A stretch of 64,000 nt of DNA from Perna viridis (lineage: Eukaryota), in assembly GCA_037379345.1 (NCBI GenBank), contig CM074520.1:10726001-10790000 (forward strand). Reading direction: 5' to 3'. Shown piece by piece: positions 13,256 through 36,160 of this stretch (position 1 is the first letter of the stretch; each line of letters opens with the position of its first letter). The notes beneath the pieces were generated by a model that was given only the letters and a program-made list of their open reading frames with translations, had not been told where the DNA came from and made no database searches. A program made the translations under genes and the position numbers.

Positions 13256-13261
13256 GTAAGA

Positions 13262-13522
13262 TATGGAGGCTTATTTCTGCCATCAAGATGTTAAGCTGTC
13301 GAGATAATTATCGAGACATGTCGACATAATTTTTTCGACAAGTCGACTTAATTTTCTTGGAAAGTCGACTTAACGCCATTTTTATGTCGATTTGTCACGA
13401 AAAATATCCAAACAAGTCGACATATTTTTCTCGACAAGTCGACATCAAATATCTTAAATTCTCATCCTGAGGTCGAGATGTTGCTCGTAGCTGCCACCGT
13501 GAAGTTGCGTTGTCCAGATAAT
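13262..13522 (+). repeat. Left terminal inverted repeat (~261 bp; weaker similarity to ~13640)
   Basis: Matches the reverse complement of 35894-36154 with only about 7 mismatches by eye; many (CAA)GTCGAC motifs. Confidence 0.95.
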
Positions 13523-15174
13523 CATGTTAACTTTTCGGGATTAAGAAGTCGGATTGTCGAGATAATGATCTGAAAAAGTCGATTTCAATCTCTATTTTCA
13601 CAACATGTCGACCAGCTCAATTATTTATTATCAAGACATGTTTATATAATTTTCTCGACAAGTCGACATACATATTCGAATTTTCGGCAAGATGTTTATC
13701 TCGTAATTTTACTACGGTGAAGGCACACGTGCAGTGCTAGTACCGCCATGGATAATCAGGTAGGTGAAAAATGTCATGTCACCCCTCTCCCTCTCCTGGA
13801 TATTACTTCCATATTTTTTGTACAAAGCGTGGGGAAGCAGGTCCGAAAATGGTGTTCAAATTAAGGTAGCTAGGAGGACGCCAGAGAAATTCAAATGACA
13901 TTTATCAAAAATGATTAAAAAAATGTCAACAATTTTTTATTTTAAAGTAAAATAAAGAAAGGTTACCAGGAGTGTTTGTGTCCGGAAGGGAGGGGGTGCA
14001 TTACAATAGGTAATGTACTAGTACATGTATGTGCCGCAAAACAGGGTCTTGTTTTATCCAAATAATAAACAAGGTCGTTCGTTTAACCTTATGTCATAAG
14101 CAGGGTTTCGACTTAAATCATTGATACTTTATTGCAAAAACGGGTTGTTGCTGACGTGAATGACAGTCAGCGCAGATAAAAAAATTAAAATGTAAGTACT
14201 GTTCATTTTTTTAAAAGTTATCACTATATTTGAACATTCCACGTCTTATCTATAACCTGAATGCATTAATAAAAAAGGTTAAATGGGTGTAATCATGGTT
14301 AGTATCAAGATAATTAGATAAAGTTAGATTAATTGCAACTCTTGGCTTCATAGAGCGCCTCTGATGAGTTTTAAATAGACAACACAGTCATGCGTAGTAA
14401 AAATTCTTTTTGCTTACAGTGTCAGTCCCCTTGCTTTGTATACCCTCACTCCAGAACTAATCATGGTAAGGCGGCAAGAGACTTTTAACCTTTTTTATTA
14501 ATGCATTTAGAACGAGTTCATATTTCTAAAAAAAATTATGAAAAATACATGTGCATATTACAGATATGGGTTCCATAACAACGCATGGAAAGTTTTTATA
14601 ATTTGCTACTTAGGGAAACCACAAAAGTACTTCATATAAATGGTTAAAATGTCCAAAAATACTTCAAGTGATCAAGGGGCCAGTTGGGGGTAACGATTTG
14701 CCTATCAAGGCTAAACCAAGTCTTAAAACCCTGCTAACAGTCATCTGGAAATCGTTTTGTTTGTTTTGTAAGTAGGTCATCAGATTGGGAATAACCCTAT
14801 GGGAATATATCTCAATTGGGATGTTATACAGGTTGGGTGTAATCATGGTAAAGATATCAAAATTGCAACTCTTGGCTTCATATATAGATGTCTCTGGTGA
14901 GTTTGAAATAGACAACACATATGTGTCAGGCGTAGCAAATATTTTGTTGTTGCCTGAAATTTTATTGCAGTTTCGATTTTTAAAGGTAAAAATTGTCAAT
15001 TTTTAACAAGTTTGTCATATTTTTGCATGATTGAGAAATTTTTTTTTTTTGCTTTTGCATTTTCTGCCATTACTTCTCAGCTCTTCAAGTTCAGTATCTT
15101 AAATTATACATGTTTATAGTAGTTTTGATTTCATGGAACGTCGCAAGGTTTTGTTCTCTTTTTTCTCATTCAAG

Positions 15175-17643
15175 GATAAAGTACAGATTCCGCTAAAAAT
15201 ATACAGTCAAAATAGAATGACAAGAAAAGCAGTTGTCGTGCACTCATTTCAAGACTTGATTAACAAATGTAAGTACATTTTAGCTCACCTCACGAAGGTG
15301 AGGGGGAGGGGGCTTATGTGATACCCCTGGCATTGGCGTCCGCACCCACTTAGAGAAGAATGGTTAAGATCCATACACGGTTACTTGCAAATGCCACATC
15401 AATAATATTGGTATGGTAGGTGCACCTAGTGATGCTAAGCACAACGCATGCTTCGGATGCTGGCTGCAACCTATATTTTCTGGATGGATGACCACTTACA
15501 GAAGAATGGTTAAAGACTGGCAAGTGGCACATAAATGATATTGGTATGGTAGGTGCATCTAGTGATGCTAAGCACAACAATGCATGCTTTGGATGCTGGC
15601 TGTGATCTATATTTTCTGGATGGATGACCACTTACATTACCAATATTTTACTACTGAAAAATAGTTACTCCATACTTAATAACAAGGAGAGTTAATCGAC
15701 ATGTTAGGATGCTGCCTGTCAAAAGGAAAGCTTTAAGCACAATGCAGGCTTTGAATGCAGACTGCGACCTCCTTTTTCTTCGTGGATGACAAATTAAAAC
15801 TTTGAAAGGTTTAAGTCCATTCCTGCTTATCAAAAATACTATGTAACAAGGTGAGCTTTGTAATTGACAGATTACCTATGTTTTTTTTTTTTCATGTATT
15901 TATATAGTTCACAAAATCACAAAAATTTAGTACCCAATGAAATGGAAATTTTTCATCGATTTGAATAATAAAGTTGTCTAAATCACAAATTTATGCATCC
16001 ACAAACCTTAAACAGATTTCTCGACTTCTGTTAAAGGGAAAGCTGACATATTAGGTATGTGACTGACTAGGTGACTTGAGCCCCCTTCTAGGGTCAAAGG
16101 CACAGCAACTTCCTGTTAACCATTAGCCTTAGTATTTTTATACCCTGCCACATCAAGTGGTGAGATATTATGTTATATCCTCCGTTTGGTTCGGTGTCTG
16201 TCTGTTCATCTGTCCCCCGCACAGTTTCCAGATGATAACTTGGAAACGTGTCAAGGGATTTGAATTATATTTTGCACAGCTGTAAAGTACAATTAGATAA
16301 AGGTCAAGTTTAATTTCCAGGTTAATCTGGGAAATGTTTTTTTGAGTTGGGTCACTTTGAAGAACTAAAGTGAATGTATTTTTGAGTGTCTATGTGATAA
16401 CTTTAAAGCACGTCAAGGCCTTTAAGGGATTGCCTTATATTTTACACAGCTGTAAAATGCAATAAAATAAAGACCAAGTTAAATTTTCATCTTAATCTGA
16501 AAAATATTTAAAATTTCATGTAATTATTGATTTTGAATTTTGGATTTTACATGGCAGAATATCATATAATGTCCCATTAGATGCCCTATTTTTTCAGGAT
16601 GTATTTACCTTATTGTAAATATCTTAATAAATTTCTCCGCTGCTACATGAGGGATACTTTCATAATTATTTTCAAAATTTTCAGACTTTAGTTAAGTATA
16701 GTTAAGTATAATTCAGATGTTTTTCATAATGTTCCAGTATGGTACAAATAAGTACAATTTAGTACCAAACCTAAATTGTTCTGCAGACTTTATCTCAACA
16801 TCAACTGCCTGCAAAGGATGAAAAAATAGGTTGACCTGGCCTACTCTTTGCAAACTATTTTTTCATACTTTGCAAGGCAGTTGAAGTTGAGATAAACTAA
16901 ACAATTTTTTGAATAATTTGTATAGAAATATAGAGAAAATATTGCATATTTACACCCAGGGTACTATTTTTGAGACAATTAAATTTCATAACTGCTTTGG
17001 ATATTAGGTTCCTTTTGGTGCATATCAGATGTTAGGAGTTTTAAATTATAGAGGAAAAAAATGTAAAAATTTTTAAAGTTAGTTTGGCCAGATTTATGAA
17101 TGGAAAATGAGTAATTCATTTGTACAGTAAGAAATATAAACTGAAATTGGAGAATCTGAAGAAAACATTGATGAAAATGATTTTAAAAATAACTAGTTTG
17201 ATGATGCTTAATAATGTTTAATCTTTTTCAAATACATGTAGGTTCCACTGGCCAAAAGGCAAAATAATTATTCCAATCAAACACGATTACCCAGTCTTTT
17301 CAAAAGAACTTTTTAATCTAAAACAAAACAAAAGTTAAGCAGCTTTCATTAAAAGACATTGAAATTTATGCAAATGATATCTTTTGTTTTGTAAGATACA
17401 TGTAGTATATAAAGGGAACTGAAGGAAGTAATTGAACCAGATGCACAAAAAGATACTGAATGATTTATGTAGTTTTCAATTCAGGCAAAGAAAAATTCAT
17501 GACTGTTGATCAAACATTAGCAATAGTATTAAACAGTGATGGGGTGGAAATAGACGAGGATTATTTTCTACTGTTAGCAGGAAATACAAAGTTAATGCTC
17601 CTGCAAGGAGATGAAAGATGGGTTCCACAATATGTTCCTCATG
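15175..17643 (+). CDS. CIDE-N (CAD) domain split over two exons (15175-15268, 17485-17643)
   Basis: Spliced peptide IPLKIYSQNRMTRKAVVVHSFQDLINK-C-KEKFMTVDQTLAIVLNSDGVEIDEDYFLLLAGNTKLMLLQGDERW fits the CIDE-N pattern (P-F/L-K...R..RK.V.A.SL.EL..K......LVL..DGTE.D.EYF..L..NT.LM.L..G..W). The T|GC junction creates Cys in frame. Confidence 0.85.
15279..15885 (+). mobile_element. Helentron/HINE-like element with ~120-bp internal tandem repeats
   Basis: TTTAGCTCACC...GGTGAG 5' hairpin, GGTGAGC subterminal IR near 15850 and internal repeats 15350-15800. Confidence 0.55.
16788..16897. repeat. Hairpin/MITE with ~40-bp arms
   Basis: TTTATCTCAACATCAACTGCCTGCAAAGGATGAAAAAATAG vs CTATTTTTTCATACTTTGCAAGGCAGTTGAAGTTGAGATAAA. 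Confidence 0.6.
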
Positions 17644-18036
17644 GTAATTTATTTGCTAGCCAAGTGTTATAATATATATTTGTAATGGGATGTCCTGTGG
17701 ACACAATTGGTAGATACCTGTACCAATTAAGACATGACAATTATTAAGTGGCCAGCAAAGTTTGTGTTCAACTTTATAATGTTACTCATTGTTTTGTTAT
17801 CTCACTATCCAAAACTAGAACTTTGGGCCAATACTTAGCCCAGTACATATATATTTTTAGGCTTTAAATTTGTTATGGGTATATCATGTACATATGCATG
17901 TACATTATTCTGTGCTTGGTATCATGTTTTCGTTTGTTAATTTCTCAATGATAATTACAAAGCATTTATTTTAAAAACATTTTAAATAGAACCACCAAAA
18001 TTTTAATGGTAACATGACAACTACATGTAGTTATAA

Positions 18037-18620
18037 TTAGCTCACATGACCCAAAGAATCATGTGAACTATTGCCATCAATTGAGGTCTGTCATCCGTTA
18101 TCTGTCCATTAACTTTTCTTTACATTAAAGATCTTCTTTTCTAAAACCACAGAAGGAATTCATTTATAACTTGAGTACTTCATTATTAGGATGTCTTGTA
18201 CCAAGTTTTTGAAATATATTGCTGCTGACCAACCAAGATGGCCACCATAGCTAAAGATAGAATATAACTCTTCATTTTCAAGATTGCTACCCTTTTCCCT
18301 GCCAAATTGATAAGTAAGTCAGATTTTAAAGAAACATGGTATACCAAGTTGAATGCTGATGAAACATTATTTTCTGATTTGCCATTTTCAAGTTGGCAGT
18401 CATTTAATTGCATATATTTTCATGTTGCTCATGATTCAATGAAATTTGGTATACATCGAAAACATGGTATGCTAAGTTGAATGGCAGTGACAATTTTTTT
18501 TTTAATTTGACATTTCCCTTCAAATTTTCAACTTGTCATTTTTTCAATAACTGACAATTTTTAGTCAAATTGTGCACTTTGAGTCAGATGAGCGATTCAG
18601 GCTTCTAGGGGCCTCTTGTT
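18037..18620 (+). mobile_element. Helentron/HINE-like non-autonomous element
   Basis: TTAGCTCACATGACC...; 3' CAGATGAGCGATTCAGGCTTCTAGGGGCCTCTTGTT. Confidence 0.65.
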
Positions 18621-18785
18621 TAAATCGTAAGATTATTCTATTCTCAGACATAAGGTGCTCTTAGTTTAGAATTTGGCACCCTGTTTGTCATTGTTTTTGG
18701 ATTTTATATTGTGCTCATCTTCCAGTTTACTGGTGCCTTACAACTTTTGACTTGAGCATCTCTGATGAGTGTTTAACATGTTTAA

Positions 18786-19315
18786 GGAGGTACATGACCC
18801 TTAAGCAATTTTTTTCTTGTCATTGAATTTTCTTTAAAACTAAATATGTCATGACATGTTTTTTGAATTTTGACTTCCCAACTCAGTTTCATAATAAATA
18901 ACTCCAAGGGTTGGATGAATTTCATTGAAATGTTAAAGAAAATGGAAAATTTCAATAAAAAAATGTTAATAAAAATTTTGTCATTGAAATTTTGTTAGTT
19001 TTTTACATTGACTAGTACATTGCATTAGAAAAAAAAGAGGATGTTTAGTTTTCAAAAGTAATCAAAATTGGCATATTTGGACACAAATTACCTCCCTTAG
19101 CAATATTGCAGGAAAATTCAATCAGTTAATGACATTTTTTAACCAACTGAAATAAACAATTACTAGAAAAATTGTTCATTTTCTCCAAGATCAAAACCAA
19201 AGTCACAGACACAAAATTAAGAATGTTTTAACAAATATTTTGAAACCTGGAAATCTTTTCTATAATAATTCTTCAATAGTCTGAAGTTTTATTTTGATCA
19301 ATGTCATGCACCTCC
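18786..19315. mobile_element. Non-autonomous Kolobok-like element
   Basis: TTAA|GGAGGTACATGAC ... GTCATGCACCTCC|TTAT (TTAA-type target, GG..CC termini). Confidence 0.5.
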
Positions 19316-22149
19316 TTATTGGATATAACACAAGACAGTGAAAGTTTTAACTTGTTTGTATGAAACTGTTTTGTATTTTGGCATTTTTTTCACAAAACTT
19401 TGAGAAATGGTTTATTATTGTACAGACTTGGATGTAATTGATTTTCAGTTAATTTCTTCAAAAGGTATAAATTTTCAGGAAGTTAAAGGTAAAGGTGAAG
19501 ATTGTTGTAACCACCACAATATATTTTGGAAGGTATGGGGGTACTGTGATCTTGCTCACTGTGGTTCTTTCATTTTCTTTAATATAATCGCCAAATCTGT
19601 TGTAAAAAAATTGTATACCTTGTCCTATTTTGTGAAAAAATAAAACTAAAAGAACTACACCTCTTTATGTCATATGTATATTATTCTTATTTAGCTAAAT
19701 AGGAAGACACCACAAAGAAAAACGTATGTGAAGATTAGTTTAGGATGGCTGTATTATGATGTTTTTTGTCAAAATGGGGGTGGAACTAGAGTTGTTGATT
19801 TCAGATGGGATAGCACATATGGAGATATACTTCAAAAAGCAAAGGAATTGTGTTTTCCCAAATAGTAAGTTAAATAAAAGTTATTAGAAAGCCCTGTGAG
19901 CTTCTGTCATCACTTGATACCTCTACTAATTTTTTTTCAAAATCTAGAAAACACTTGGTTAAATATACTAAAATTTAGTGCAGCTGTTTTCTATTGTGTC
20001 TTTTACAAAATTATTGATTGGTTTCAAAAACATGGGTGTCATAGCTGTGATTAAATGCAGTTTTTGTCACAAAGTGGGTGAAGTTGATTGAACATTAGGT
20101 GGCAGGCAGGTGTGGAAAAATATTTTTAACTGATTTCTTACTTTTACTCTGAAGGGGTTGGTTTCCAATTTGATACACTGCACAAACACGGTGACTTGTA
20201 CCATTCCTCCTCTTTCCATGTTGGTACACATCTTCTCCTCTTGCAACTAACACTATTTTAAGTGTCCATGCTCGAGTAATGGATTTTTTTCTTTTTAAAT
20301 TTTTTCCAATAATGTACCTAAATTGTACTACAGTATAGTTAGTTTTTTTCCGGACCACACATTTCATGATTTTTAACAAAAACGGGGGTATTCCATTTAA
20401 GATGACTTTCAATTCTCTAAAACAAATGTATGGCAAGCCTACATTTAGTGAGTTTTTATTTTCGTGACTGTAAGGTCATTAGAAATATAGCAAAATATAG
20501 AATCTTGCAAAATTACTGGCTACATTAAAACCTATTGTCATAATTGTAAAGGCTTAAATTCATATGGTAAGTGTTAGGCACATCCAAATTGACTACAAAG
20601 CACAAATTGTTCAGAATCAAACTTTTTGACATGACCTCTGAAAGTGTTGGATTAAAAATACATTTTTTAATGTTTTCGCCTTATAAATTGAAAACCTTTG
20701 GAGATAATAAAAAGCTTTTGCTTGCTTAAATGTCAAGCTAATTCATTTGGTAAAATTGTTTTATGTTTTGGTAGAAATTATTGCTCTTGAAATATCAGAA
20801 CTGTGCTGTGGAAGTTTTCGCCTTAAAATTTTAAACCAATTTACAGATATATTATAAAAAAAAAATGCTCTGCTTGCTCAAATGATCATTTGGTTGTCAT
20901 TTACAGTGTTTCTTAAGTCAGGAAAGTGATGCAGGATTTTGGGAGGCTCTTGTTTTTTGGAAGGTTTTAATGATTTCTAATAGCTGTCAACATGTTCTGT
21001 AAAATTTTATAAGATTATAGATTTATCCTGTAGTTTTAGAGATGCTTTGATCTGGAGGGTTAAGTGGACAATGGTCATCACTATTGGTCAAAGCATTTTC
21101 AAAACTTGTTCAATGTTGTCTATTACCTTGTCTTTCAAAACATCGTATCTTAAACATTCAGAGTGATTAAAGCCCCCTGGGCCAATGTTTTGTCTATTTC
21201 ATGTAAAATAATAAATTAAAAATATGAAAATTGAAAACCTCTTAGAATTATAATTTTTTAAACTATGCCAATGTATTCACAATTTTTCTTTCTAAGTTTG
21301 GTAGAGAGCCATACTGTTGTTATCATGTCCCTTTGTCCATCTGAAAGATTGTCAATCTTAGTCATCTGAAACTAATAAACTGAATTTCATAAAACTTGGC
21401 ATTTATAGTGAGTACACATATGTAGTTGTGCGTATCAACATGAAAGTTTGATTTTTTTATACATTGCAGGAGGCATATTGCCTTTTAACCTTAGAAATTA
21501 TGTGTCCTCACACTTTGGGGGATGTCTTTGCCTACTTTGGTGGCATATTGTTTTTTATTATTTTTGTCATGTCTATCCATCCGTAACAAAGTTATTCAAT
21601 GCAAGTCCTTTGAATTAATCATCAGAATTGAATGAAACTTGGTTTGTAGTAAATACATCATATGTAGTTGTGAACGGAAAATTTGATCCTCTAATTTTTG
21701 TAGGAGTTGTAGCCCTTTAAACTTAGGATTTTTCTGAAAATCTATTATCGTGTGCAACTCCTACTAAAACTACTTTACATAATGAAAATCGTCATAACTA
21801 AATCAAATTTCTTGAAACTTTCAATAAAGTTTATATTATTTTTATGCAGATGTTTCTTCCAAGGGACATTGGGATTCCTTTATAAATCAGCTTGGAGATT
21901 TCAAACAGAACAATATTCTATCTACAGGATTTAGCCTTGAGCAATATATTCAAAGACACTGTCTTACATTGAAACCTAGAATCTACCTTATGTCTAAGGA
22001 AATATTGGAAGAACAGGTAAATATTAGAATCAAACAAGAAATAAATGTGTTTGGATGCCAACGACAAATTGCCAATAAGTGACCTTGGATAATTTTCTAT
22101 TGCAATTACTACATCAAAGTATGCATAATAACCTAATTTTACTGAAATC

Positions 22150-23130
22150 AGACAGTTGAATTGTTTTGGAGTGCACGTGAGGTAGTAAAATAGCAGTTTA
22201 TTTAAAACAGTCGGCTGAAAAAGAAATGAAAATAGATTGTTCATTAACAACACACTAATCAACCTAAACAACAAATTCAGGTATTTGTGCAATACATATT
22301 CGAAATAAACTTGAATTTCTTAACTACTTCAAAGAAGAAAATAGTGTTCTGGCAATCACGGAAACACATTTAGATCCATTTATAAAAAATAATGAATAAC
22401 TCTCAAAATCCAATAAGACTTGACAGAAATAGCTTTATATTTTAAGGACCATTTATACATAAAGCGTATAATGGAACTTGGAAATCTGCTTGACGAAATG
22501 ATTTGGGTTGAAATCTGTACTAAAGGTGAACAGTTTTTTCTGTGTAACACCTATAGACCTGAGTGGACTGACGATCTTTATAGGTCACAGCAGCACACTT
22601 TTAGACCTAATTTTTTAATCAGCAATACACTAAATTGCAATTTTTCTGATGTATTATGTGTCACTAGAACAATCAGTGATCACGAAAATAAATCATTCTA
22701 AATCTTTTAAAAGGGAAATATGGCTCTATAATAATGGAGGTAAGATTAGATTTGGCGATAAGTTAGATAATGTAGATCGGGAGACAATCCTACATTTTGA
22801 TGATGTTGATAATATGTGCACAATTTTTACAGACAAAATTATAGATATAGCTAGAGAATGTATTCCTACAAAATATGTAACTGTCAGAACCAGAGATAAA
22901 CCCTGGTTTAATAGTGAACTTAGAAAAGAAATAAGAATTCGAGATAGACTTAGACGGAAATCTTTAAAATCAAAAATAGACATTGCCATGCTACAATACA
23001 AAAAAAGAGAAACAAGGTGAATTACTTGGAAAAGATTGCTAAGGAGAGATTGCAACAGAATTTAGACCACATTATATTTGAAAATGCAAACAATACTAAA
23101 ACATATTGGAAAATAATGAGTCCACGTCTC
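22150..23130 (+). mobile_element. CR1/L2-type LINE fragment (endonuclease to pre-RT) in an intron of the cargo gene
   Basis: AITETHLD, EMIWVEI, CNTYRP, ECIPTKYVTVRTRDKPWFNSELRKEIRIRDRL. Confidence 0.75.
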
Positions 23131-24379
23131 ACTTCCTCAAAACCTTTACAACATTCATTTATACTTTTTGGTAAAAAATTAACCAATCAGAATCATTGCT
23201 TCTGTAAACAACTGTAATTTCAAGATAAACATAAACTTCCATTGTTAGATAAAACTATATCTTAGCAACTAAAATTGTATAGGGGTGACATTTTGTCAGG
23301 AAGTAACCAACGTGCTTGAGTACAAAGTTTTAGACCAAAAACAGGTCTTATTGCCCCTTCTACTTTACCTGCAACACGTATGTCACGTAAGAGATTCAGG
23401 CTACTTGGCACCTCTAGGTTCCCTAGTTCATTGATACTACACACGCAAATTCAAACTAATAAATAAATAATATGGTAAAGGCTTGCCATCAAATAGGCAT
23501 CACTAGAATGCAGTTGTTTGTTCCTTTTATTGTTTTTACTCTGTGCTAGAAGCTTTAATGCAATTATGACATAACAGCCAATTGTTACAACATGACAAGG
23601 CAAAACTCTTTCGAGGAAAACGATATAACATTTTTGGCACTTTACCTAAAATTTGAATGAAAGGTATTAAACATTTTAGATAATGATAAGATGTTGAATA
23701 AGTGTATGTGACACAACCCCTATAAGCAGTGATTTTAAAATTCAGTTTAATACTGTTCATAGGCACAAGCCGCACATTGTTGATTTCTTATTGCAAATAA
23801 ATGTAAATTGCTAAAGGTTTGATGCACAATGCCAATTCTATGCAGGAATAACACATATGATTCTGGCTAGCTTTGTTCACATGTCATGCTGCTCACATCT
23901 TGTGATACTATCTTCAATTGTTATGGGAAATAACAAGACATTCTGTTGGTAAGGTGTAATGCGAATGATAACATTGGGAAAAGATAAAGAGCTACTTTAT
24001 ATTTACTTTATATATACTTTATACATTTTGTATTTATTTTTTTCTTGTCAGGATTTTGAATTACCTGACCTGCTAGGAACTGGAATTGACGATGACCCAG
24101 TAGTGGTTACAGATAGTAGTTCTGATGATGCCCTACCTGAAACTGCCATTTTTAATTCTCCAATTGGCAACCAAGAACAAGGAGCTGACATCCCAGTATT
24201 GAATTCCCAAAATAGTCAAGAAGTCCTACCTGGAATTCCTGCATTAAATTCTCCACATATTAATCCAGTAACAGTATCCAGTGATCCATAGATATGGTTC
24301 AGAGTCTTCACCAGTGGTAACATTTATTTATTAATTTCCTCAAATGAAGTGGGGGTGTTGGTGACATTGATTTGAACAT

Positions 24380-24997
24380 TTTAAGCTCATCTGACCCAAA
24401 GGCTCATGTAAGGTATTGCCATAGCTTGTTGTCTCTTTTGTCTGTCGTCTGTATGTAATCTTCTTCTATAAAACCACTGAAGGGATTGCTTTGAAATTTT
24501 GCACACATTGAATTATCTCAAGAATGTCCTCTATCACGATTGCACCAATCATGGCTGCTGACCAACCAACATGGTCGCTGTGGCTATAAGTTGATCGCTT
24601 GCATCTTCTCACCTGATTGTCACCAATCCTATTTATCATTTTAGATAGAAACAAATTATTGTCTTATCATTTTAGATAGAAACAAATTATTGTCTTATCA
24701 TTTTAGATAGAAACAAATTATTGTTTTATAATAGAAAGGTTTAACAAAGAAATCTTGGATGCGGTAAGGAACCAGAAAAGTATTAGTGATATTAATCATG
24801 AATAATGCAAACAAACACCATGAACATTTGTTTCATGCTCTTTTATGTTCAAAAGTCCCAATGGAGATTTTTAGAAGTTGGCAATTAGTGACAATGGCCA
24901 TATTCTATCCAAATTTTTAACCAGTGATTTTTAAAATAGCTAACATTTTTAGGCTTTGATTCATGCGAGCGATTCAGGCTTCTAGGAGCCTCTAGTT
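24380..24997 (+). mobile_element. Helentron/HINE-like non-autonomous element
   Basis: Same ends as 18037-18620; contains a ~30-bp triple repeat at 24632-24723. Confidence 0.6.
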
Positions 24998-25907
24998 ATT
25001 CTTCTAACCACTAAATTGTTCTTGGTGTCCTCTGAAATGGTTGAACTAATTGCTACTATACTTGGCACAAAAAAAAGACCCACCTGAAGTTGTGCAACAT
25101 CGACACAGAACCATTGGTCGTTCGACGTTTCAAAATGGCAATCGACAAAATTTTGAAGAAAAAAAATATATAAAAATTCCTAAAAATCAGCCGGTCAACC
25201 AATCAATTCCAAGTTGGTAGAAATATAGAACATAAAGATGATGAAATGTCTAACTAAGGACACATATTAACAAGTCCAGGTGGGCTGCCATTTCAAAATT
25301 GCAGACCTAATACATAAAAAAAACTGAAAAAAAATCTTCAAAAATCAGTTGCTCAACTAATAAATTCCAAACTTGGCTGAGTAACAGGACATGGTTTATC
25401 TGACTATCTACATATAATATCAACTTACGATCATTGGCCATTTTCAAATGGTGACCATTAAAAATTTTTTAAAGTTTGGAAAAAAAATCTACAATTCAGT
25501 GGGTCAACAGAATGATTATAAACTTGGTTGTAGAAATAGGACATGATATACTTGTCTTTTCTATATAATGTCAACTTCTGACCGGTGGCAATTTTCAAAA
25601 TGGCCGACATTAAAATGAAAAAAACTCTGTAAGGTTATTGTACCGCCAGGGGATATAGTGATTGGGGTGTCTGTACTTTTGTCAATCCTAGGGGTTACTC
25701 AACTCTTATACACAACTCCTCCTACACCACTGCTTTCAATTAAATTTGAAATGAAACTTTAAAGGCTATAATATGATCTGTTATTGCACTGAAATTATGA
25801 TAAAAATATGATTGCTTACTGGTACAAAAAATGTAATTGATACATTGGTGAAACCATAAAGATATGGGTTAGATACATGTTATATTTAAGATTATTTTTT
25901 GTTACAG

Positions 25908-26084
25908 GTTGTGAAGGCTCCACCAATTCCAAAGTGTACTGTTTGTACAGACAGATTTTGTGATTCTTTTCTAAGTTGCGGTCATATAATTTGTTTCATT
26001 TGTGCTGCAGAATTGGAGGAGAGGGGGTCAAAATGCCCAGTGTGCCGAAAAAATTTTTCACAAGTATCTAAACTCTTTTATTAA
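25908..26084 (+). CDS. C3HC4 RING finger terminal exon (IAP/MDM2-like C-terminal RING)
   Basis: CTVC...CGHIICFIC...CPVCRK with aromatic tail KLFY*; acceptor ttacag at 25907. Confidence 0.9.
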   Translation, partial: VVKAPPIPKCTVCTDRFCDSFLSCGHIICFICAAELEERGSKCPVCRKNFSQVSKLFY

Positions 26085-26881
26085 AAGAAAAACAATGATC
26101 CGAGATGAGCAAGAAGAAATTGCTTTAAATTAATAACAACTTTTATTTCTACTGGTACTTTTTTTTAAATACTGTTTTGTACTTAATTATTGTATTTACA
26201 TGTATTAATTATTTTAGGTTGTTTTACAGAAAAGAATCTGTGATAAACATTATTTTACACTTGTAAAGCCTAACTGTGTTATTTAAGTTAATTAACTTAG
26301 AAGATGTAAAAACTTCAACAATTATTGTTTGCCAATTTTTTTATGTCCCAGAGAAGACTAGTGGTATCAAGTTGTAACCTATTTGTACATACACATAATT
26401 GTATGCTTTTTTTACAGTAGTTTACTAATGCCATAACTTGCATAATTTATCATTTTAAGTCTGAATATTTCTAATCTTTCCCAAAAAAACACAATGCATA
26501 TTACAATAAACGATAAAAAATTCAATTTTGTTCATTTTTACCCATACTTTAAAGAAATGATTGTGTTTATATACTACTTGTATATGCTCACCTAACCTGC
26601 AATGACAAGAAAGGTCATTTGAGCTATTGCTATCATTTGTACACTATCCTCTCCAAATATTGCACAAATCATGATCACTGACCAATGGACATATAGAGAG
26701 TGACTACAAATAAAACATGGCTGTCAAAAAGTTTTTGGCTTTTAACTCGAAAAATATTATAGACAGAGGAAAACGTAAGGTAATGTACTCCTTCAGCTTG
26801 ATGGGCTCTACAAAACTATCCATTGGATGGCCCCTTGAAGGAGTTATTTCCACTTAATTGTCAAAATGGGCAATTTTACAG

Positions 26882-28687
26882 TTTTTAGCTAACCTGAAGA
26901 GTCGAATGAGCTTTTGTCATCATTTGGAGCACGTCTGTCAAAAAACATGGCTGCCGTTGCAAAAAATAGAACATAGGAGTCAAAAAGCAGGTTTTGCAAA
27001 TAACTCAAAAATGGTTAGGTTTAGCCAAATTCTGGCAAATGGCAATTATGATATCTACCATTAAACAAATTTTTGTAAAAATCTAATAACCAATGTTGGA
27101 GTTATTGCCCTTTATGACATTTTTTTTTGCTTTTTTTGACTGTTTCAAAAAAATCAAAAAAATTCATAAAATCTTGTCTTAAACCACTTTGCCAAATACA
27201 ACCAAACTTGGTGTGATTGTTCTTTAGGGTGTCTTTAAAAAATTGTCGTTTGAATTTTGATTGGTCGAAAAACATGGCCACAGTTACGGTGTACAAAATT
27301 ATCATTCACATTTTTTATTTGTCTAAAGAGATGGCCACCATTACTAAAAATAAAACATAGAGGTCAAAAAGCAGTTTTTTGGAAATAACTCAAAAATGGT
27401 AAGGTTTAGCCAAATTCTGGAATAGGTTAAAATGATCAGAATTATGAGATCTGCCAGGAGACAAATTCTCCTAAAAATCTAATAACTGATGTTGGCGTTA
27501 TTGTCCTTTTTTGACATTTGTTTTTTTTGTTTTTTTGTTTTTGTTATTTAGACTAAAAACTCTTCTCTTCTTAAACCACCTGGCCAAATGCAGATAGAGA
27601 AACTTAAATATCCAGCTCATTTAGCCCTAAAAAAATTTATGGTCCAAGATACCAGATGACCTCTTATTTGAGTTATTGTCTTGTAAAGGTTGAAAGTTGT
27701 GATTTTGTCTTAAAAAATGGAAGCTAAGCATATTATTATTGGATAACTGTTTAGCAGATAGAGCTCTACAAACAACTCCACGAATATAGGTCTTGCAGTT
27801 TCTGTCATTTTTTAGCAAACATGAACCGAAGGCCCATGTGAACTATTGCTATCACATAGTTCTGTCATCGTCTGTTAACAATTTTTCAAAAATCTTCTCT
27901 AAAACTACTGAACTGAATTTAATGAAACTTGGTATGATTATTCCTTAGTGTGTTCTACACAAAGTTTGTGTTTCGTTTTTAAATCCATCTTTAAGGGCTT
28001 ATCACTCTGAAAGTATAAGAGATAGAAAATAACCAAAGGATCTTAGGCTCTTCAGAATCATTGAGCTCTACAAAAGTCTCCATTGGGTCGAAGTGGTCAG
28101 ATGACCCCTAATAGGGGTTACAGCCCTTTAAAGGTGAAAAAAGTTTTTTTTCATCTTTTTAGCCAATAGAATGAAATCTATTGCAGATAGAGAAAAGCTG
28201 TTGTTGCTTTAACATTTAGCTCATTGAGCTCTACAAAAATCTTCATTAGCTTGGAGTTGTCAGATAACCCCTTATAGGGGTTACGCCCCTTAAAGGGGAA
28301 AATAGTGTTTTTTCATGTTTTTGCATATGGAATGAAAACTATTGCAGATAGAGAAAAGCTGTTCTTGATTAAACCTGCTCATTGAGCTCTACAAAAGTCC
28401 CCATGGGTTGAAGCTCTCAGATGACCTCTTAAAGGCAGCGAAAAGGTTTTTTTCATGTTTTTTGGCCTATGGAATGAATTAATACTTGTGCAGATAAAGA
28501 AAGTTGCGGCTTGCTTCCTTAAACCTTCAGCTCATTGAGCTCTATTTGTTAAAAAATGCCTATAACGACCCAAAAAGATACTCATATAGACAGCTTAATA
28601 CCAGGGGAGCGATTCCGTCTCCTTGGGAGCCCTGTGTTCGCTGGTATAGGTGGGTGAGCGATGCAGGCTCCTGGGAACCTCGAGTTT
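26882..28687 (+). mobile_element. Helentron/HINE-like element(s) with ~160-bp satellite array (28010-28545)
   Basis: TTTTAGCTAACCTG...; 3' GGTGAGCGATGCAGGCTCCTGGGAACCT; repeated TTGAGCTCTACAAAAG...CAGATGACCCC at ~160-bp spacing. Confidence 0.7.
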
Positions 28688-29637
28688 ACAAAAAAAATCC
28701 AGAAACCATAATAGTAAGGTCACAAGCTAGCATTGCAAAATTGATCCTAATTGTGCTGTACTAAAAAGACATCATGGTCAAAATTGTCATACGCCCAGTT
28801 TTTGTTGTAGTTATGTTACCTTAACCCATTTTAATTACCCCCTCTTTGAAAACAGGGGACATAGTGGTGGGGCTGTTTGTTCGTTCGTAACTCAAGGAGG
28901 TACACATCTTATCTACAGCTCCTCATACATCACTGCTTGGAATTTAATGAAACTGTCAATCTTTATTACATATTTCACATATGTGTCGAAGCCAGGACAT
29001 TATGTGTCGATTTACATGAAGGTATTTTATTGCTCTCCAATATCATTCAGGGGAGATCATTCGACTTACAATTTACATTACATACTGCATATAGGATATT
29101 GTAAGCACAACTTTTCCTTAACCGTTTCTGGAAATTGATGAAACTACATGAAAAGGAAGGAAATCATTTGCAGATTTGCATGAAGAAATTTAATTGCTCT
29201 TGGATTTCATTCAGGGGAGATACTTGGACTAAAGCGCAACTCCGTCTACAACATTTCATGGAATTTGATAAAAATATACGTCTCTGGTCACCTTCAATAC
29301 ATTTTCGAAATTAATGATTTAGATTGTGAATTGAGTTCATTTTTTCTACAACTATAATTCATGGTAGTATGATATTTAGACAGTAGATTCATCACAGTTG
29401 TAAAGAATTAGGTCGTAGACCTATCTTTTCCTGATGGAGACTTCCATTGGGTTTAAACCTTTTACATTAAAATTTTTCAGCAACCACAAGTATAAGAGAT
29501 ATGGCATTTGGTCCGTGGACACATCGGTAGTATTAACTTCGGTAGTAACACAAGTTAAGCAACATTTGCATATTATACAGGAACTACACCTTTCATTTTT
29601 TATTTAAGAAATAATTCATTGAATGGTAAATTACATG

Positions 29638-29887
29638 TATGGCACGCCATGGTTATTGTCAGAAGTATAGCTTAAATATAATATATGTACACAATTTTGA
29701 GTGATTTTCAGTTTTGAGTATTTTAAAATTTTAAGTATGTAATGTACGTTTTTGAGTATGTAATTTGTAAAATTTTAAGTGTACATTTTAACTTTGAGTG
29801 TGCAATTTCAAATTTTGAGTGTTGAATTTCATTTTTGAGTGTGTAATTAGATTGTTGTCATACGTTTGACTGAAACGGCGTGCCATA
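29638..29887. mobile_element. 250-bp mini-element with TATGGCACGCC TIRs and internal ~21-bp repeats
   Basis: TATGGCACGCC ... GGCGTGCCATA; internal AATTTTGAGTG repeats; no clear TSD. Confidence 0.55.
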
Positions 29888-29973
29888 GTATATATATGGG
29901 ATAAACACTTTATGTTGAATGTTTTTGAGAGAAAAAATATGATTGAGATTCGTCATAAGTGATTAGTTATGAT

Positions 29974-31549
29974 ACAAGAGACTCCCAGGAGTCTGAATCG
30001 CTCACCTGACTTTATTAGCTATGTATAATATGTAAATGATAATGGTCATTTCCCACCTTTAGAGTTGTTGTAGAGCTCACATAGCTGTGCATTAAGCAAA
30101 CTAAAGCTTTACCTACCTTTTTCACAATCTACCATAAAATGGCTGATTTTTTATGGTTAACGAGCCATAACTCGTGTTAGCAGTCATCTGACAATTTCGA
30201 ATAAATGGTAAAAAGAGTTATTTTTATATGTTTAAGGGGCCATAACACCAATAAGAAGTGATCTGACAAAGCCGAACAATAGACAATTCTGCAATCTAAT
30301 TAAAATTAGATTCCACACTCAGCTCCCACTTTTTCTCTGTCACTACGTGGGTCATCTAACGACATCTCATTAGGGGTCATGTTCTATTACTTTTGGCCAA
30401 TAAAAAAGAGCGTACATGATTGCACTGGCGGTATGGATGTATTAGAAATGTTCCGAATTTGACCTTAGACATAACCCCTAATAGGATGTTGTTATATCTC
30501 CCAGGCAGCGACATAGAAAAAAAGGGGGAGCGGAGTGAGAGATCTAATTTTAATTAGATTGATAATTTTGTAGAGTTCAATTAGCTGCATATTTCAGCAA
30601 GCAAAAGTTATTCCCTATCTTCTATGGTTCACAATGTACAAGGCAAAATGACTATTTTTGACTTTAGGGGGCCATAACTCCTATAAGGAGTCATCTAACA
30701 ATTTTGAACCAAGGACAAATTTGTAGAGCTCAATTAGCTTTACATTTAACATTTAAGCAAGCAAAATCTTTCTCTATCTTCTGTGGTTCTTTATCTATAA
30801 GGCAAAAACCAGTATTTTTGACGTTTAAGAGGCTAAATCTCTATAAGGGTGTCATCTGAAAAATTCGATTCAATTAACAATTTTGTATAACTCAAATAGC
30901 TGAACATTTAAGCAAGCAAAAGCTTTTAACCTTCTCCTATGGTTTAAAATCTATATGGCAAAAACAACTATTTTCGACGTTTAAGGGGTCAGAACTCCTA
31001 CAAGGGGTCATCTGACAACTTTGACCCAATGTAGACTTTTGTAGAGCTTTACGAGCTAATCATTTAAGCAAGCAACAGCCTTTCTGTATGTTCAATAGCT
31101 TCCTTTTTTTCTTAAACCACGAAAAAACCGTATTTTTACCATAAATGGCCATAACCCTGATAAGGGGTCATCTGACAACTTCGACCCAATGAAGACTTTT
31201 GTAGAGCTTAATGAGCTGGACATTTAAGCAAGCAACAGCTTTTCTGTATCTTCAATAGTTTTCATTCTATAGAGCACAAACATACAAAAACGCAATTTTT
31301 GACTTTAAAGGGCCATAAACCCTATTAGGGGTCATTTGACAGCTTCGACCCAATGAAGACTTTTGTAGAGCTTTTGATGCCTAAGAAGGAAGATTGCATA
31401 AGATTTTCTCCATCTCTTAGCCATGGCTTGCATTTGGCCCAGCATTTTAAGCGGAGAAGATTTTTGAAAAGTTGAACTGACGGATGGACAGACGATTGAC
31501 ACCAAGTGTGGACAATAGCTCACATGACTCTTTGGATCAGGTGAGCTAA
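29974..31549 (-). mobile_element. Helentron/HINE-like element with ~160-bp satellite array (~30090-31380)
   Basis: Ends GAATCGCTCACCTG / CAGGTGAGCTAA; repeated GGGGTCATCTGACAA...TTTTGTAGAGCT units, the reverse complement of the 28-kb array. Confidence 0.75.
30292..30561. mobile_element. MITE with ~35-bp TIRs inserted in a satellite monomer (possible 9-bp TSD)
   Basis: CAATCTAATTAAAATTAGAT... / ...ATCTAATTTTAATTAGATTG; flanks ACAATTCTG / ATAATTTTG. Confidence 0.65.
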
Positions 31550-32311
31550 TAATCTACATTTATTTATAGCCGGCCATTTTTACTCGTTCCATTACTGAAT
31601 CTAAAATGCATCATTTGAATATTGATGAAAAATTATTTCTTTAAAAGGAAAAAAGCATGCAAAATCGTGTATGCTTTTTCCATCGGTAATAATATGTTGA
31701 TCAATCAAAAACTCTTCGTTATAACTGCACGCACTATACATCAATGGTCCCTGATTCTATTTTGGTACCAGAGGTGAAGAAAAGAAAGGATTTATGTCAT
31801 ACAAAATAATGTTAAAAGTAAATAATTTTTTTCGCACTCTGCGCGAAAATAATTCTATCCAGACCAAAAAACAACCCCACTTTTCAAGTCACATAGTCGG
31901 CCCCTTAGAAACAGGTTTACCATCCTACCTTATATCATCATTTTTCATGCATTGTTATTAATCACCCCTTTCATGTTAATCTACAAGATGTAGCCGAAAT
32001 GCACTGTTAGGGAGTAAAGCAATAACTAAGCTTTGAATTCCTAATTATTATTTTTTAAAATGTCGTAAATTTAACACTAATAGTTAAATACTTTAAGAAT
32101 ATTTATTAGAATAAACTAATCAACCAATCACGTTTTTTTCTGAAAACAAAGAATTATCAGACATGACAAAACAATATGCATTTGTAAACGCTTATATAAT
32201 AATTCTGACAACGACATCATCTAAAATCAAGCAGCGATGCCATTGATAAATTCTTTTAATGAATATCATTTTGCGGATGCAAGTAAAATAACAGTTCTTT
32301 GAAAAAACGTT

Positions 32312-33536
32312 TTACTGAATGTTATCCCTTACGTAACTGATTATTTCATAATAAAGTAGAGCCGCTTCATCAATGGAATTCGGCGGGTATGACAGTCCTC
32401 GTTGACGAATGATATAATTTGCTAACCACTCAAATTCTTGACACACCCCGTGCTCTTTGGGTCGTTGGCAATATTCATTCTGAAGTATGTCAGCGTTTCC
32501 TTGAAGTATCATCTTCTGATTCACAGTTCCAAAAGTTTCAGGTTGAAAATATAGAACATCAGGTTTTCCAAAGGGGCCGTTGCTTCTAGGGTTGTATCTA
32601 ATAGGATGCTCATTCTACTGACGCACAACAGACACTAAATCTAGATTTATTTAATGCAAGAAGCAATACCGGATGCACTCCAGGTGCAAATTATCTGATG
32701 TGTCTAAAGAACCATCATCTGTCATCAGTTTAAAAAAATCCATCCATGTATCACCACACATCCTTGTAAGATCTCTCCAAAACCGCTCGATCCTGGTATT
32801 TCTTGTTGAAGAGCCATATCTATAACTTGACAAACCCTGATACTGGTCATTATGGTTCCATCTAAGAGTGTATTGTAGATCCCTAGTAATTGAGTTTTCT
32901 GTTCCTCTGTCGCTATATACCAAAACTGGTACCCCATTTATTTCTCTGATGTAGTTTAGATAAAAGAATGGGACGTAATGAGGGTTTTTGTTCGAATCAC
33001 ACGCTCTAAGCCAAATAATTCTTCTAGAAAATCCATCTATAGCGGCATGTATTGACACACCGTACGGTTTCAACTTGTCCCCGCCATCCATGTGAATTGC
33101 GAAATTCGGACCTGGATTACTATAAATACGACGTCGAATTGAACGACGACTTCTCTGCGCAACACCTTGCCTATCCAAGACACAAAGTACCTGACGTACA
33201 GTTTCGGCAGTGACTGTTAAATGGTGCGTTGGTTGTAAACGCCTTCGCATCAGGCGATAACCAATATGTTGATCCTGACGAGCCAACTCGTGAGAAACAG
33301 CTAGAATAATATCTGCAAGAGGAGATTCATTGCCCCTCCAAAGTAGATTCATGCCGCGTAATATACGATGAACTTGTCTTTCGCTGATGGGACTATCATG
33401 TCGAAGAGTCATAAAACCTATTATTTCTCTTATTCCGTAACCATTCTGATAGTATATTCCAATCAATTCGTTTCTGCTTAACCTTTGGCTTGCAATTTGC
33501 TGGTCACTGAGGTTTGCAGGAGTATAAAGACCCGTT
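32312..33536 (-). pseudogene. DDE integrase-core transposase (main exon), two in-frame stops
   Basis: ORF 32651-33466 has HTH-like N-terminal part, GYRLMRRRL, YSNPGPNFAIHMDGGDKLKPYG..IHAAIDGFSRRIIWL, SDRGTEN and STRNTRIERFW (D, D, E catalytic motifs). The frame continues past TAA (32651) and TAG (..VRQ*NEHPIR, expected WNxHxIR) into ORF 32312-32524. Splice acceptor ttacag at 33537; upstream exon not identified. Confidence 0.9.
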
Positions 33537-34329
33537 CTGTAAATGAAATATGTTGTATAATTGACTATATCATTAATCTATGATGTACATAAATTTCAAA
33601 TATTCTCTCAGACTAATAAGATTTTGAACAAATAAAAAGAAATGTGTCCATAGTGACAATAAGTTACTGTCAAACGGATGTAAGAAAAAGTCGCTTAAAG
33701 TAGTTGCTTTCGGAATATGAAAAGAATACTGAGTAGATGTTCATGGGCAAAATATTTTACAGATTTTGGAATGGAAAAAGGCAGAAGAGCTGGCATATCC
33801 GTTTGACAATGTCTGAGAAATCAAAGATGGCAACTTTCTTAAGCATACAATACATTTAGAAAAAATGTGTAAAACTAAATCCTCCCAACCCAGGAAGATG
33901 AAGTGGCCATGGCAAATTAATATTTCAGGAAAATATATACCAGTATATCTGAATCATTACGTAATTTCCACAATAAACCTTACAATTTATTTTGCTAAAA
34001 ATTAAATCAACATAACTGGAAAGTAATAGATAATAACGAGATGTGGAATAAATTTACATCACAACGAGAATTTAAAAAAAAGCTGCCATGTAAAAAGCCA
34101 AAAGCCTACAACGTATATATAGACCAGCGATCCCTTGCGTGCGGTTTTGAAGTTGTTCGAGTTAACTAAAATACATTTTACTTTTTAGTTCTATGGCCTT
34201 TTTTCAAATCTATGGTTACAGTAGTTTTTCAGTGAAGTGTCAGCACACAATAAATCTTAAGCTTGAAATATTCATAAATTCTAATTCTTTTTAAGGATTT
34301 TTAGTACAAAATTAAAATCGAAATTGGCC

Positions 34330-34735
34330 AAAGTAACCAAATACCCGATATATTTGTACTCCAGGGTAAGAAATGGAGATCACCAATGTAATACAGTTGA
34401 AGATAAGTATCAATTTTTATTGTTATGTAAATGTAACTCAACAATCAGAGATAATTTCTTAGAAAAATTCAAACATTTTCGAAGAATTGTTCACCTTATA
34501 GGTACACTTGATGTAATATTATGCCCATCAACGCCATCACAAGTAAATAATCTAGTTCCTTCATTAAAACGTCTTTAGCACTAAGGACAGGGGATTCGCA
34601 GACATTTACTTGTTAACACCGATTTACTATGTTAATGCATGTAACTGAAATATTGTATATATTTTATGTATAGTACAATTTGAATGTATTTTTGTCACAA
34701 TCACTTTTTGTTTAATAAAGTTTTGATTGGTTGAT
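34330..34735 (+). mobile_element. LINE 3'-end fragment (CR1-like)
   Basis: C..VEDKYQFLLLC..N..IRD motif followed by AATAAA and a (TTGA)-like tail. Confidence 0.5.
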
Positions 34736-35893
34736 GAAAATGTATAGAAAATCCATATCATTCCTTAGGGCATGATGTGGATTTCTATTGAAAACGTTTT
34801 GTACATCCATCTCTTACCATGAAGGGGCTGTTATATGGCATTCGTATTACACCCCTTGGGTATATCGTTCTTCGACCACTACCAATATCATATATGCAAA
34901 ATAAAACATATCTTTACCAAGTATATGATTATACTGGTTACCGGCCTCTTCAGAGGATATTTTTTACTTTACAAGTATATGATACACAAATAATTACATG
35001 ACACCTTTAGCCAACCCTTATATTATCCCTCTGTGATGATAAAAGGTATGATGTTAACACTGCCATATGCCATATTTTTTAAAGTAAGATTTACTAAAAT
35101 ATATTTTGCCGTTTTCGTCAAAGCAGGAAAGACGAAGCCCACGCCACCAGGCAATATATAAAGTTTTGAGACTGATATTTTTTGCATATACCCCTCCATC
35201 ACATTAGATATCTGTTCAATATACAAGAACATTTTCCCTTGGTACCTTGAATTGCATGTAAGTGTTATATTACCCTCCGCCCACGTCGTTGGGCAATTTA
35301 ACAAACATGCAATTCAAGGTACCTCTTGAAAATATTCATGTATATTGACAATAACATGGGATATTTGTATAATAAATATTTCAAAGAGCAATACACACCG
35401 TGTTTTAAGTCACCAATCAATAAATGACAGTAAAATCTAGCTACATTTGACACGCGGAAACTGATGATAGAAGAGTAAATTGCCTGCATACTTTCTTTTT
35501 TTGGGGGAGGGGGGGGGGGGGCGCAGCTGTAATATATTTGTTGCCCTGTTTTAATTTTCCACATGCATTTCTTAGCTAAGCTTACCTGATTTGAAGCCCT
35601 CCAAATATTGTGCAGAGTGGTCCTATCTGCTTTATTAATATTATAAAATACAAAGAGCTCCCTTTCTCCGACGCTAGTCCGTGTGCCTCCTCGGTCCACG
35701 TGTAGTATAAAATTACTTAAATGACTGGTTGGTCAAATGCCATGTTAACATGTGATAATTTTATAATAAATGATTTAGTTTGTCGATTGGCCACATAATT
35801 ATGTCGACATGTTTTGACAATACATGTATAAAACAATGAAGTCAACTTCTTTCGATTATTATCTCGATAATACAACTTGATGAAGTTGATATA

Positions 35894-36154
35894 ATTATCT
35901 GGACAACGCAACTTCACGATGACAGCTACGAGCAACATCTCGACCTCAGGATGAGAATTTAAGATATTTGATGTCGACTTGTCGAGAAAAATATGTCGAC
36001 TTGTTAAGATATTTTTCGTGACAAATCGACATAAAAATGGCGTTAAGTCGACTTTCCAAGAAAATTAAGTCGACTTGTCGAAATAATTATGTCGACATGT
36101 TTCGATAATTATCTCGACAGCTCAACATCTTGATGGCAGAAATAAGCCTCCATA
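35894..36154 (-). repeat. Right terminal inverted repeat (~261 bp; weaker similarity to ~35790)
   Basis: Reverse complement of 13262-13522; followed by TSD GTAAGA. Confidence 0.95.
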
Positions 36155-36160
36155 GTAAGA

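Follow-up and report, generated by a model that had tools for sequence, protein, structure and literature searches.

A decayed IS3EU transposon in Perna viridis with a convergent CIDE-N–Ubl–RING accessory gene

A 64,000-nucleotide stretch of Perna viridis DNA (GenBank assembly GCA_037379345.1, contig CM074520.1, positions 10,726,001 to 10,790,000 of the forward strand; hereafter the window, whose own numbering is used below) contains, between positions 13,256 and 36,160, a decayed transposon of the IS3EU/GingerRoot type with a second gene convergent to its transposase. This accessory gene encodes a CIDE-N domain, a ubiquitin-like (Ubl) domain and a RING, and its product was probably a ubiquitin ligase (E3) that assembles with itself and aids the spread of the element in trans, a reading held here with moderate confidence. 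The superfamily is already known and the copy is dead; the novelty lies in the CIDE-N–Ubl–RING accessory architecture. What was observed directly comprises the ends and the 6-bp duplication made on insertion, the chain of exons with the domains they encode, the lesions of this copy, and the recurrence of the gene layout in a second family. How IS3EU elements are built and what they do has been called largely unexplored (PMC11934779).

Four features delimit the element:

13256 to 13261, no strand: left target-site duplication (TSD), GTAAGA, from the sequence and empty paralogues
13262 to 13533, plus strand: left terminal inverted repeat (TIR), 272 nt ungapped with gapped similarity to about 13613, TATGG terminus, 7 GTCGAC in the first 439 nt
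35883 to 36154, minus strand: right TIR, CCATA terminus, 6 GTCGAC in the last 439 nt
36155 to 36160, no strand: right TSD, GTAAGA, from the sequence and empty paralogues

The TIRs form the top inverted repeat of the window and are 96% identical over 272 nt. Their identity is almost perfect up to about nt 260, in agreement with the repeats of about 261 bp described in an earlier note on this DNA, and a gapped alignment reaches about nt 352 at 88%. The element is 22.9 kb long with the termini TATGGAGG…CCTCCATA (that is, TATGG…CCATA), and the 6/6 match of the GTAAGA hexamers that flank it has a chance probability of about 5e-4. The insertion target is a dispersed host repeat, of which at least 40 copies exist at 74-91% identity. 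Eight paralogues were fetched out of the 41 matches listed, and in all eight the site is empty, the left flank passing into the right flank over a single hexamer, which is GTAAGA in five and a variant differing at one or two bases in three. Because these paralogous sites are empty, the boundaries and the 6-bp duplication are fixed independently of the TIRs, and the exact ends proposed in the earlier note are borne out. The same note called the element complete, which holds for its ends and fails for its genes, both of which are broken in this copy. The host repeat spans window positions 12700-13255 and 36161-36550.

The palindrome GTCGAC occurs 13 times in the two 439-nt ends (13262-13700 and 35716-36154) versus four times in the other 63 kb, and these arrays are candidate sites for the transposase. 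Similar TCGA-centred repeats are found at the ends of family 3, one of the families with HECT-type accessory genes described below. Only about 2.3 of the 22.9 kb are exonic, and the size of the element stems from non-coding sequence. Its description as unusually large is apt in comparison with GingerRoot elements (3.9-12.9 kb; PMC6839031) and does not hold against two elements of a second family in this genome, which span 23.3 and 35.7 kb between their TIRs. Local masking found 2.2 of the 22.9 kb to match at least two unrelated fetched loci, a lower bound that is no measure of nested repeats. Tandem units of about 160 bp in both orientations, likely nested non-autonomous repeats, lie at 28064-28450 and 30546-31373.

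The right end of the element carries the integrase-like gene that had been predicted there:

32312 to 33536, minus strand: IS3EU-type DDE transposase coding exon (PF24764; Pfam and alignment), D-58-D-40-E, two stops, ACG at the position of the C2 copy's ATG

In a Pfam scan this open reading frame (ORF) matches PF24764 (rva_4) with an E value of 1.8e-23, and none of the catalytic residues D, D and E is missing, their spacing being 58 and 40 residues. By eye, the motifs DKLKPYG…IDGFSR…W and D-x-G-x-E-N match the IS3EU rows in Data S3 of PMC10045372, best those of oyster IS3EU-1_CGi and IS3EU-4_CGi, and the Ginger2 and IS3 rows do not fit; in IS3EU-1_CGi, also by eye, 40 residues likewise separate the second D from the E. 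IS3EU/GingerRoot elements are defined by TA..TA termini (TAYGG..CCRTA), a 6-bp TSD, TIRs and their transposase (PMC10045372, PMC12730594), which, as here, is of the rva_4 DDE type (PMC10045372, PMC6839031). The element has TA..TA termini, a 6-bp TSD, TIRs longer than 30 bp and an integrase-related DDE transposase with IS3EU motifs. On its termini, TSD and transposase motifs it is, as far as sequence can tell, a member of the known IS3EU superfamily, in line with the earlier assignment. The window copy lacks an intact transposase, the mark of autonomy, which leaves family membership unaffected.

Other superfamilies were considered and rejected. Ginger1 and Ginger2 were ruled out because they require TG..CA termini (PMC6839031), and Polinton/Maverick elements, with AG.. 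termini and a DNA polymerase gene, were ruled out by the TA..TA termini. No polymerase or capsid family match was obtained among the 11 element ORFs scanned; the longest ORF of the element encodes 308 aa.

The transposase frame of the window copy is interrupted by in-frame stops at 32651-32653 and 32615-32617, where related copies on contigs C9 and C2 (see below) have sense codons. At 33533-33535 the window reads ACG and the C2 copy ATG, and the start codon of the window copy has likely been lost. Contigs of run X5 cover 32536-33538 with two to four differences per piece, and another copy may be their source.

The left gene is a multi-exon gene on the plus strand, convergent to the transposase, with the following parts:

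13748 to 13759, plus strand: candidate first coding exon, placed by an ATG in good context, a GT donor and a fitting phase, not by an RNA joint
15175 to 15268, plus strand: exon, first part of CIDE-N with the basic surface, followed by a phase-1 intron; from a piece of an X7 RNA contig
17485 to 17643, plus strand: exon, second part of CIDE-N with the acidic patch (PF02017, E 5.5e-12); Pfam and RNA contigs
18272 to 18273, no strand: site of a segment of about 1.1 kb with a 110-nt exon, absent here and present in the C15 copies
19695 to 19864, plus strand: exon 4, first half of the Ubl domain, with an 18-nt deletion and a 1-nt insertion at the exon end; RNA contigs and hidden Markov model (HMM)
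21850 to 22016, plus strand: exon 5, second half of the Ubl domain, inside segment 21263-23649; RNA contigs and HMM
24052 to 24316, plus strand: exon 6, acidic low-complexity linker, with a 29-nt deletion relative to the C15 copies that leads to an in-frame stop; RNA contigs
25908 to 26084, plus strand: last exon, C-terminal C3HC4 RING (PF13920, E 1.6e-8), with AATAAA near 26504; Pfam

The exon chain is drawn from contigs of runs guessed to be RNA (X2, X5 and X7, from two studies), which contain GT..AG joints at 15268-17485, 17643-19695 (in two studies), 19864-21850, 22016-24052 and 19864-24052. One X7 contig equals the window sequence with zero differences across 19810-19864 and 21850-22014. 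With these joints, and with CIDE-N and RING recognised by Pfam, the convergent, intron-rich gene reported in the earlier note is upheld. In contigs of X2 and X3 the second CIDE-N exon is also joined, at 17485, to an alternative donor at 15850 by a GT..AG junction. Segment 21263-23649 holds exon 5 as well as ORFs. The C15 copies lack it, as does the more deeply covered of the contig forms in DNA run X8 (depth 90 versus 28); the ORFs at 22417-23217 have no Pfam hit and resemble, by eye, a fragment of the endonuclease and reverse transcriptase of a long interspersed nuclear element (LINE).

The domain order of the accessory protein is CIDE-N, Ubl (β-grasp), acidic linker and C3HC4 RING. CIDE-N retains both of its charged surfaces, the basic and the acidic. 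The RING has all eight zinc ligands in C3HC4 spacing, resembles the RINGs of MDM2/MDM4, TRIM21 and RNF4/8, and is predicted to give E2-dependent ubiquitin transfer. The Ubl domain (exons 4 and 5, and homologues) has no match in Pfam, and a word-based protein search with exon 4 gave no candidate. An HMM built from HECT-type proteins alone nevertheless finds exons 4 and 5 as consecutive halves of the domain (E 1.1e-4 and 7.4e-3) in a search space of 2536 ORFs, in which the best unrelated ORF has an E value of 0.98. The AlphaFold model of a homologue, P0092 (18-row alignment, pLDDT above 89 over the domain), has a β-grasp fold, with Foldseek matches to the SATB1 ULD, GABARAP, the RING1B C-terminal domain and SUMO domains. 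In the VIA comparison of this domain, Polycomb RAWUL domains take ranks 1, 3, 4 and 5 (the first with Z 10.2, rmsd 2.3, 80 aligned). The N-terminal part of P0092 (residues 1-63) resembles the tankyrase SAM in VIA (Z 7.8, rmsd 2.7, 62 of 63 aligned); Atlas also points to SAM there, at TM 0.72-0.74, which is below its family-naming bar.

The accessory architecture recurs beyond this element. The genome searched comprises 723 Mb, and names such as C2, C9, C10 and C15 denote its contigs. A transposase search gave 134 matches, which were merged by hand into 109 loci, and a CIDE-N search gave 23 matches, reduced to 20 loci by dropping three first-half exons of the same loci. Ten of the 20 CIDE-N loci lie within 30 kb of a transposase, eight of them convergent, as do 13 of 16 Ubl matches, 11 of them convergent; the chance of such proximity is about 0.9% per locus, with paralogues not independent. 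In a second family (family 2, the element of the window belonging to family 1), CIDE-N, Ubl, low-complexity linker and RING exons, complete or partial, again lie convergent to the transposase, and accessory exons of this family are present in eight loci on C2, C6, C7, C9, C10 and C14. The transposase cores of the two families are 44-49% identical and their CIDE-N domains 49% (35/71). A third CIDE-N–Ubl–RING locus, at C8:42915305-42920229, groups with family 2 by its Ubl and has no transposase in the 40 kb fetched. Two MITEs (miniature inverted-repeat transposable elements) of 312-313 bp, with TACGGAAG ends and perfect 6-bp TSDs, lie inside family-2 elements at C10:372853-373165 and C7:34980390-34980701.

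In three other families, six loci show a HECT-type region after the Ubl (Pfam E 9.9e-6 and 4e-4); the HECT match in the genome lies at C2:59.97 Mb, and the remaining family-3 loci were assigned HECT by near-identity. The N-terminal module of these families is SAM-like, with no CIDE-N. At C13:16069067-16070260 a protein-kinase domain with a frameshift comes after the Ubl core, and 40 kb of sequence there contain no transposase. Among 11 Ubl proteins from outside this genome, two have a Pfam HECT match, one (P0098) has Ubl, Ig-like and kinase domains, and shorter forms also occur; one cluster of outside proteins contains an oyster protein. These comparisons support an accessory gene composed of differing modules around one common Ubl core, with RING, HECT or kinase at the C-terminus and CIDE-N or a SAM-like domain at the N-terminus.

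In an unrooted tree of 32 transposase cores, all from this genome, families 1 and 2 together with two families in which no accessory gene was detected split from all HECT-linked families with an ultrafast bootstrap (UFBoot) of 100, and in a tree of 12 Ubl rows the RING and kinase types stand apart from the HECT types with a weak UFBoot of 72. Because the RING/HECT split follows the transposase phylogeny, the exchange of modules looks ancient. The exchangeable effector proposed earlier is therefore sustained as one Ubl core with interchangeable partners, and not as an exchange that is still under way.

The CIDE-N of the element can be compared with two host genes, ICAD/DFF45 at C12:2.70 Mb (CIDE-N and DFF-C, the only DFF-C match of the genome) and CAD at C12:30.74 Mb (CIDE-N and DFF40). 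The CIDE-N intron lies at the same codon and in phase 1 in family 1, family 2 and ICAD, whereas that of CAD lies six codons later in phase 0. The window CIDE-N is 41% identical to ICAD and 29% to CAD. The simplest reading of these comparisons is a capture of CIDE-N at the DNA level from the ICAD/CIDE lineage, and since the host gene is single-copy the direction would have been from host to element. Like host ICAD/DFF45, the element gene has a CIDE-N in which the two charged surfaces are present and a phase-1 intron lies in the same place; it differs in lacking DFF-C, in its fusion to Ubl and RING, and in being multicopy and transposon-borne. Its identification as ICAD/DFF45 was rejected for want of a DFF-C. 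Thirteen of the 20 CIDE-N loci belong to family 1, to family 2 or to the neighbourhood of a transposase, and two are the host ICAD and CAD genes. Most CIDE-N loci in this genome are thus transposon cargo, not apoptosis genes, which is relevant to counts of gene families.

The TIRs of the element (272 bp) are longer than those of GingerRoot (100-150 bp), and its intron-rich CIDE-N–Ubl–RING gene is absent from the published descriptions of IS3EU/GingerRoot examined. TET+ IS3EU elements of rust fungi (PMC12730594) share the termini (IS3EU-1_PGra starts TATGGAGG), the 6-bp TSD and an oppositely oriented second gene; in contrast, the fungal cargo consists of an alpha-kinase and a TET/JBP dioxygenase, not a ubiquitin ligase. 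The earlier note spoke of IS3EU as a two-gene superfamily, and in print this is confirmed for these fungal families only, not in general. The SAM-like–Ubl–HECT elements of this genome (with P0090, P0094 and oyster XP_022338207) have in common with the window element the convergent gene, the β-grasp core, the acidic linker and a C-terminal E3, whereas the window element has CIDE-N in place of the SAM-like domain and RING in place of HECT and belongs to a separate transposase clade. No CIDE-N, Ubl or E3 accessory gene of IS3EU/GingerRoot was found in the available parts of the literature searched; Repbase Reports, outside that search, may describe a second protein. The locus defines the accessory gene of IS3EU as a module of three parts. 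Its central β-grasp core belongs to no Pfam family, and the parts on either side have been replaced by analogous ones, SAM-like by CIDE-N and HECT by RING. This modular gene is a testable handle on the role of a transposon-borne E3.

A genome-wide TIR search gave 46 matches and a 23-base pattern 36. The sole other full-length copy, at C10:11066251-11089089, lies 327 kb away and has both flanks and the TSD in common with the window copy, with 0.31% mismatches. The C10 copy at 11.07-11.09 Mb was accordingly rejected as an independent insertion, its flanks and TSD being shared with the window copy, and it is judged to be a recent segmental duplicate or an assembly duplicate (an uncollapsed haplotype). 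Three C15 copies (5.63, 5.71 and 5.83 Mb) retain the left 14 kb only and were counted as one event, given their common flank and truncation; two further C15 loci are fragments. The copies at C9:16481413-16487359 and C2:67151573-67158260 have both lost the whole accessory gene through one and the same internal deletion, which runs from about 13645 to about 29772 in window numbering; the derivative is accordingly taken to have arisen once and then reached both places. In the C2 copy the transposase frame stays open over 384 aa, and no matching TSD is present; the C9 copy has a TSD of 5/6. Divergence of the C15, C9 and C2 copies from the window copy is 1.4-2.3%. Ten stretches adjoining older TIR-like ends (70-80% identical) contain no accessory exons.

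Measured against the three C15 copies, the accessory gene of the window is one exon short, has lost 18 nt and 29 nt in two deletions and has gained 1 nt. The missing 110-nt exon lies in the segment of about 1.1 kb that is absent at 18272, and its loss shifts the frame. The C15 copies are broken otherwise, by a lost acceptor, a frameshift and the loss of exon 5. With these lesions and those of the transposase, the window copy is, as read, unable to make either full-length protein.

TSDs were counted in every TIR pair whose two ends are contained in the sequence fetched, leaving out one pair of unknown family (2/6); the ends of the other families were taken as the best TAY..RTA pair near the inverted repeat, a choice that slightly favours TSD matches. 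Seven of the 17 pairs, from five families, have a perfect 6-bp TSD and one a TSD of 5/6.

The life of such an element may be pictured as follows. The transposase would bind the TIRs, excise the element and join it to the target at a 6-bp stagger, as known DDE chemistry suggests. The ancestral IS3EU accessory gene would have been built on the β-grasp core, to which one lineage joined SAM-like and HECT modules and the other a RING and a CIDE-N taken at the DNA level from the ICAD/DFF45 lineage. SAM domains polymerise, and many C-terminal RINGs depend on dimerisation. CIDE-N, like SAM, assembles head to tail, so the clustering on which the C-terminal RING relies would come from CIDE-N, and the accessory protein would act as an E3 that oligomerises. 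CIDE domains use their acidic and basic surfaces to build dimers and head-to-tail filaments (PMC8891305, PMC6292858). The conserved β-grasp domain may select the substrate or partner, for which a host chromatin or silencing factor is the first guess, followed by CAD and the element's own transposase. The parallel replacement of SAM-like by CIDE-N and of HECT by RING points to clustering, a docking fold and ubiquitin transfer as the properties retained by selection.

Several observations weigh against this picture. The protein that was modelled is a fish homologue, not the window's own. None of 88 CIDE-N homologues from outside this genome (host CIDE/DFF types, profile search) has a RING, so the fusion has so far been seen in one genome only; as evidence of absence this result is weak. 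No matching TSD is present in nine of the 17 TIR pairs. Of the families that the transposase tree places with the RING types, two show, at five loci and in the stretches fetched, no CIDE-N, Ubl, RING or HECT beyond one marginal HMM match. The raw-read RNA run X11, of which 19% was read, gave no reads on the accessory exons and only repeat-derived reads on the left gene. The transposases of the window and C2 copies differ by seven synonymous and 15 non-synonymous changes, the pattern expected under decay. The assembly yielded no intact accessory gene of family 1, so that any activity or present-day selection is conjectural. Finally, copies without the accessory gene bear TSDs, 5/6 in the C9 derivative and 6/6 in two 5-7-kb copies of family 7. 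The accessory gene would thus be dispensable in cis, and the movement of gene-less copies fits either action in trans or no role.

Alternatively, the accessory protein may have acted as a mimic of ICAD, with CIDE-N binding the host CAD/DFF40 and the RING ubiquitinating it, such that cells with transposase breaks were spared apoptotic DNA fragmentation. The CIDE-N intron position of host ICAD, an identity nearer to ICAD than to CAD, the retained acidic patch and the presence of both ICAD and CAD genes in the host all agree with this idea, as does the CIDE-mediated binding of ICAD to CAD, which takes place on the basic surface of the latter (PMC8891305). It is nevertheless unlikely: HECT-type families without CIDE-N keep the same core, which indicates that a CAD target is not the common function; both charged surfaces are kept and equally suit self-assembly; and the CIDE-N of family 2 is about equally far from ICAD and CAD (scores 123 and 117).

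It is likewise improbable that the ligase acted on the element's own transposase, either clearing it from the completed strand-transfer complex or keeping the amount of transposase down, and that the β-grasp served as docking module. The β-grasp is the sole part common to all accessory types, and the Ubl tree roughly mirrors the transposase tree. Physical linkage alone, however, yields such co-divergence, and kinase-type proteins exist on the same core, one of them with no transposase nearby.

A decidedly unlikely extension concerns Polycomb repressive complex 1 (PRC1), in which RING1B and BMI1/PCGF combine RING and RAWUL and Polyhomeotic has a SAM. The effector, as [polymerising domain]–[RAWUL-like β-grasp]–[E3 or kinase], would mimic this RING/RAWUL/SAM logic in order to alter or clear the silencing chromatin of the element, and in the present lineage it would have been rebuilt, with polymerisation left to the CIDE-N of ICAD and catalysis to a RING. 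In its favour, VIA ranks RAWUL domains highest for the core, which also occurs together with RING and SAM modules. The RAWUL rows (Z 10.2 and 9.4) are tied, however, to within 1 Z with ATG8/ATG12-type folds at 7-12% identity in the homologue's model, and the domain order differs. If true, a DNA transposon would encode an animal anti-silencing system that was put together on two occasions out of different components.

Very unlikely, finally, is a second gene made of captured host exons with no role in transposition, since families whose transposases are less than 50% identical agree in the order of the domains, in orientation and in the place of the CIDE-N intron, and the Ubl core, with no Pfam family and no evident host gene, is almost confined to transposase neighbourhoods, even though GingerRoot bears gene fragments with introns (PMC6839031), gene-less elements have moved and all copies examined are broken.

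Some minor observations may be added. A complex prediction for a HECT-family transposase with its own Ubl domain scored 0.00 twice, in a run that left the alignments unused. Further divergent CIDE-N exons are located at C15:2493579, 4820167, 4849786 and 12967080 and at C11:27551727. Outside the element, the window contains two mutually related short hairpin elements, at 61425-61761 and 3870-4196, with arms of 136 bp and 103 bp.

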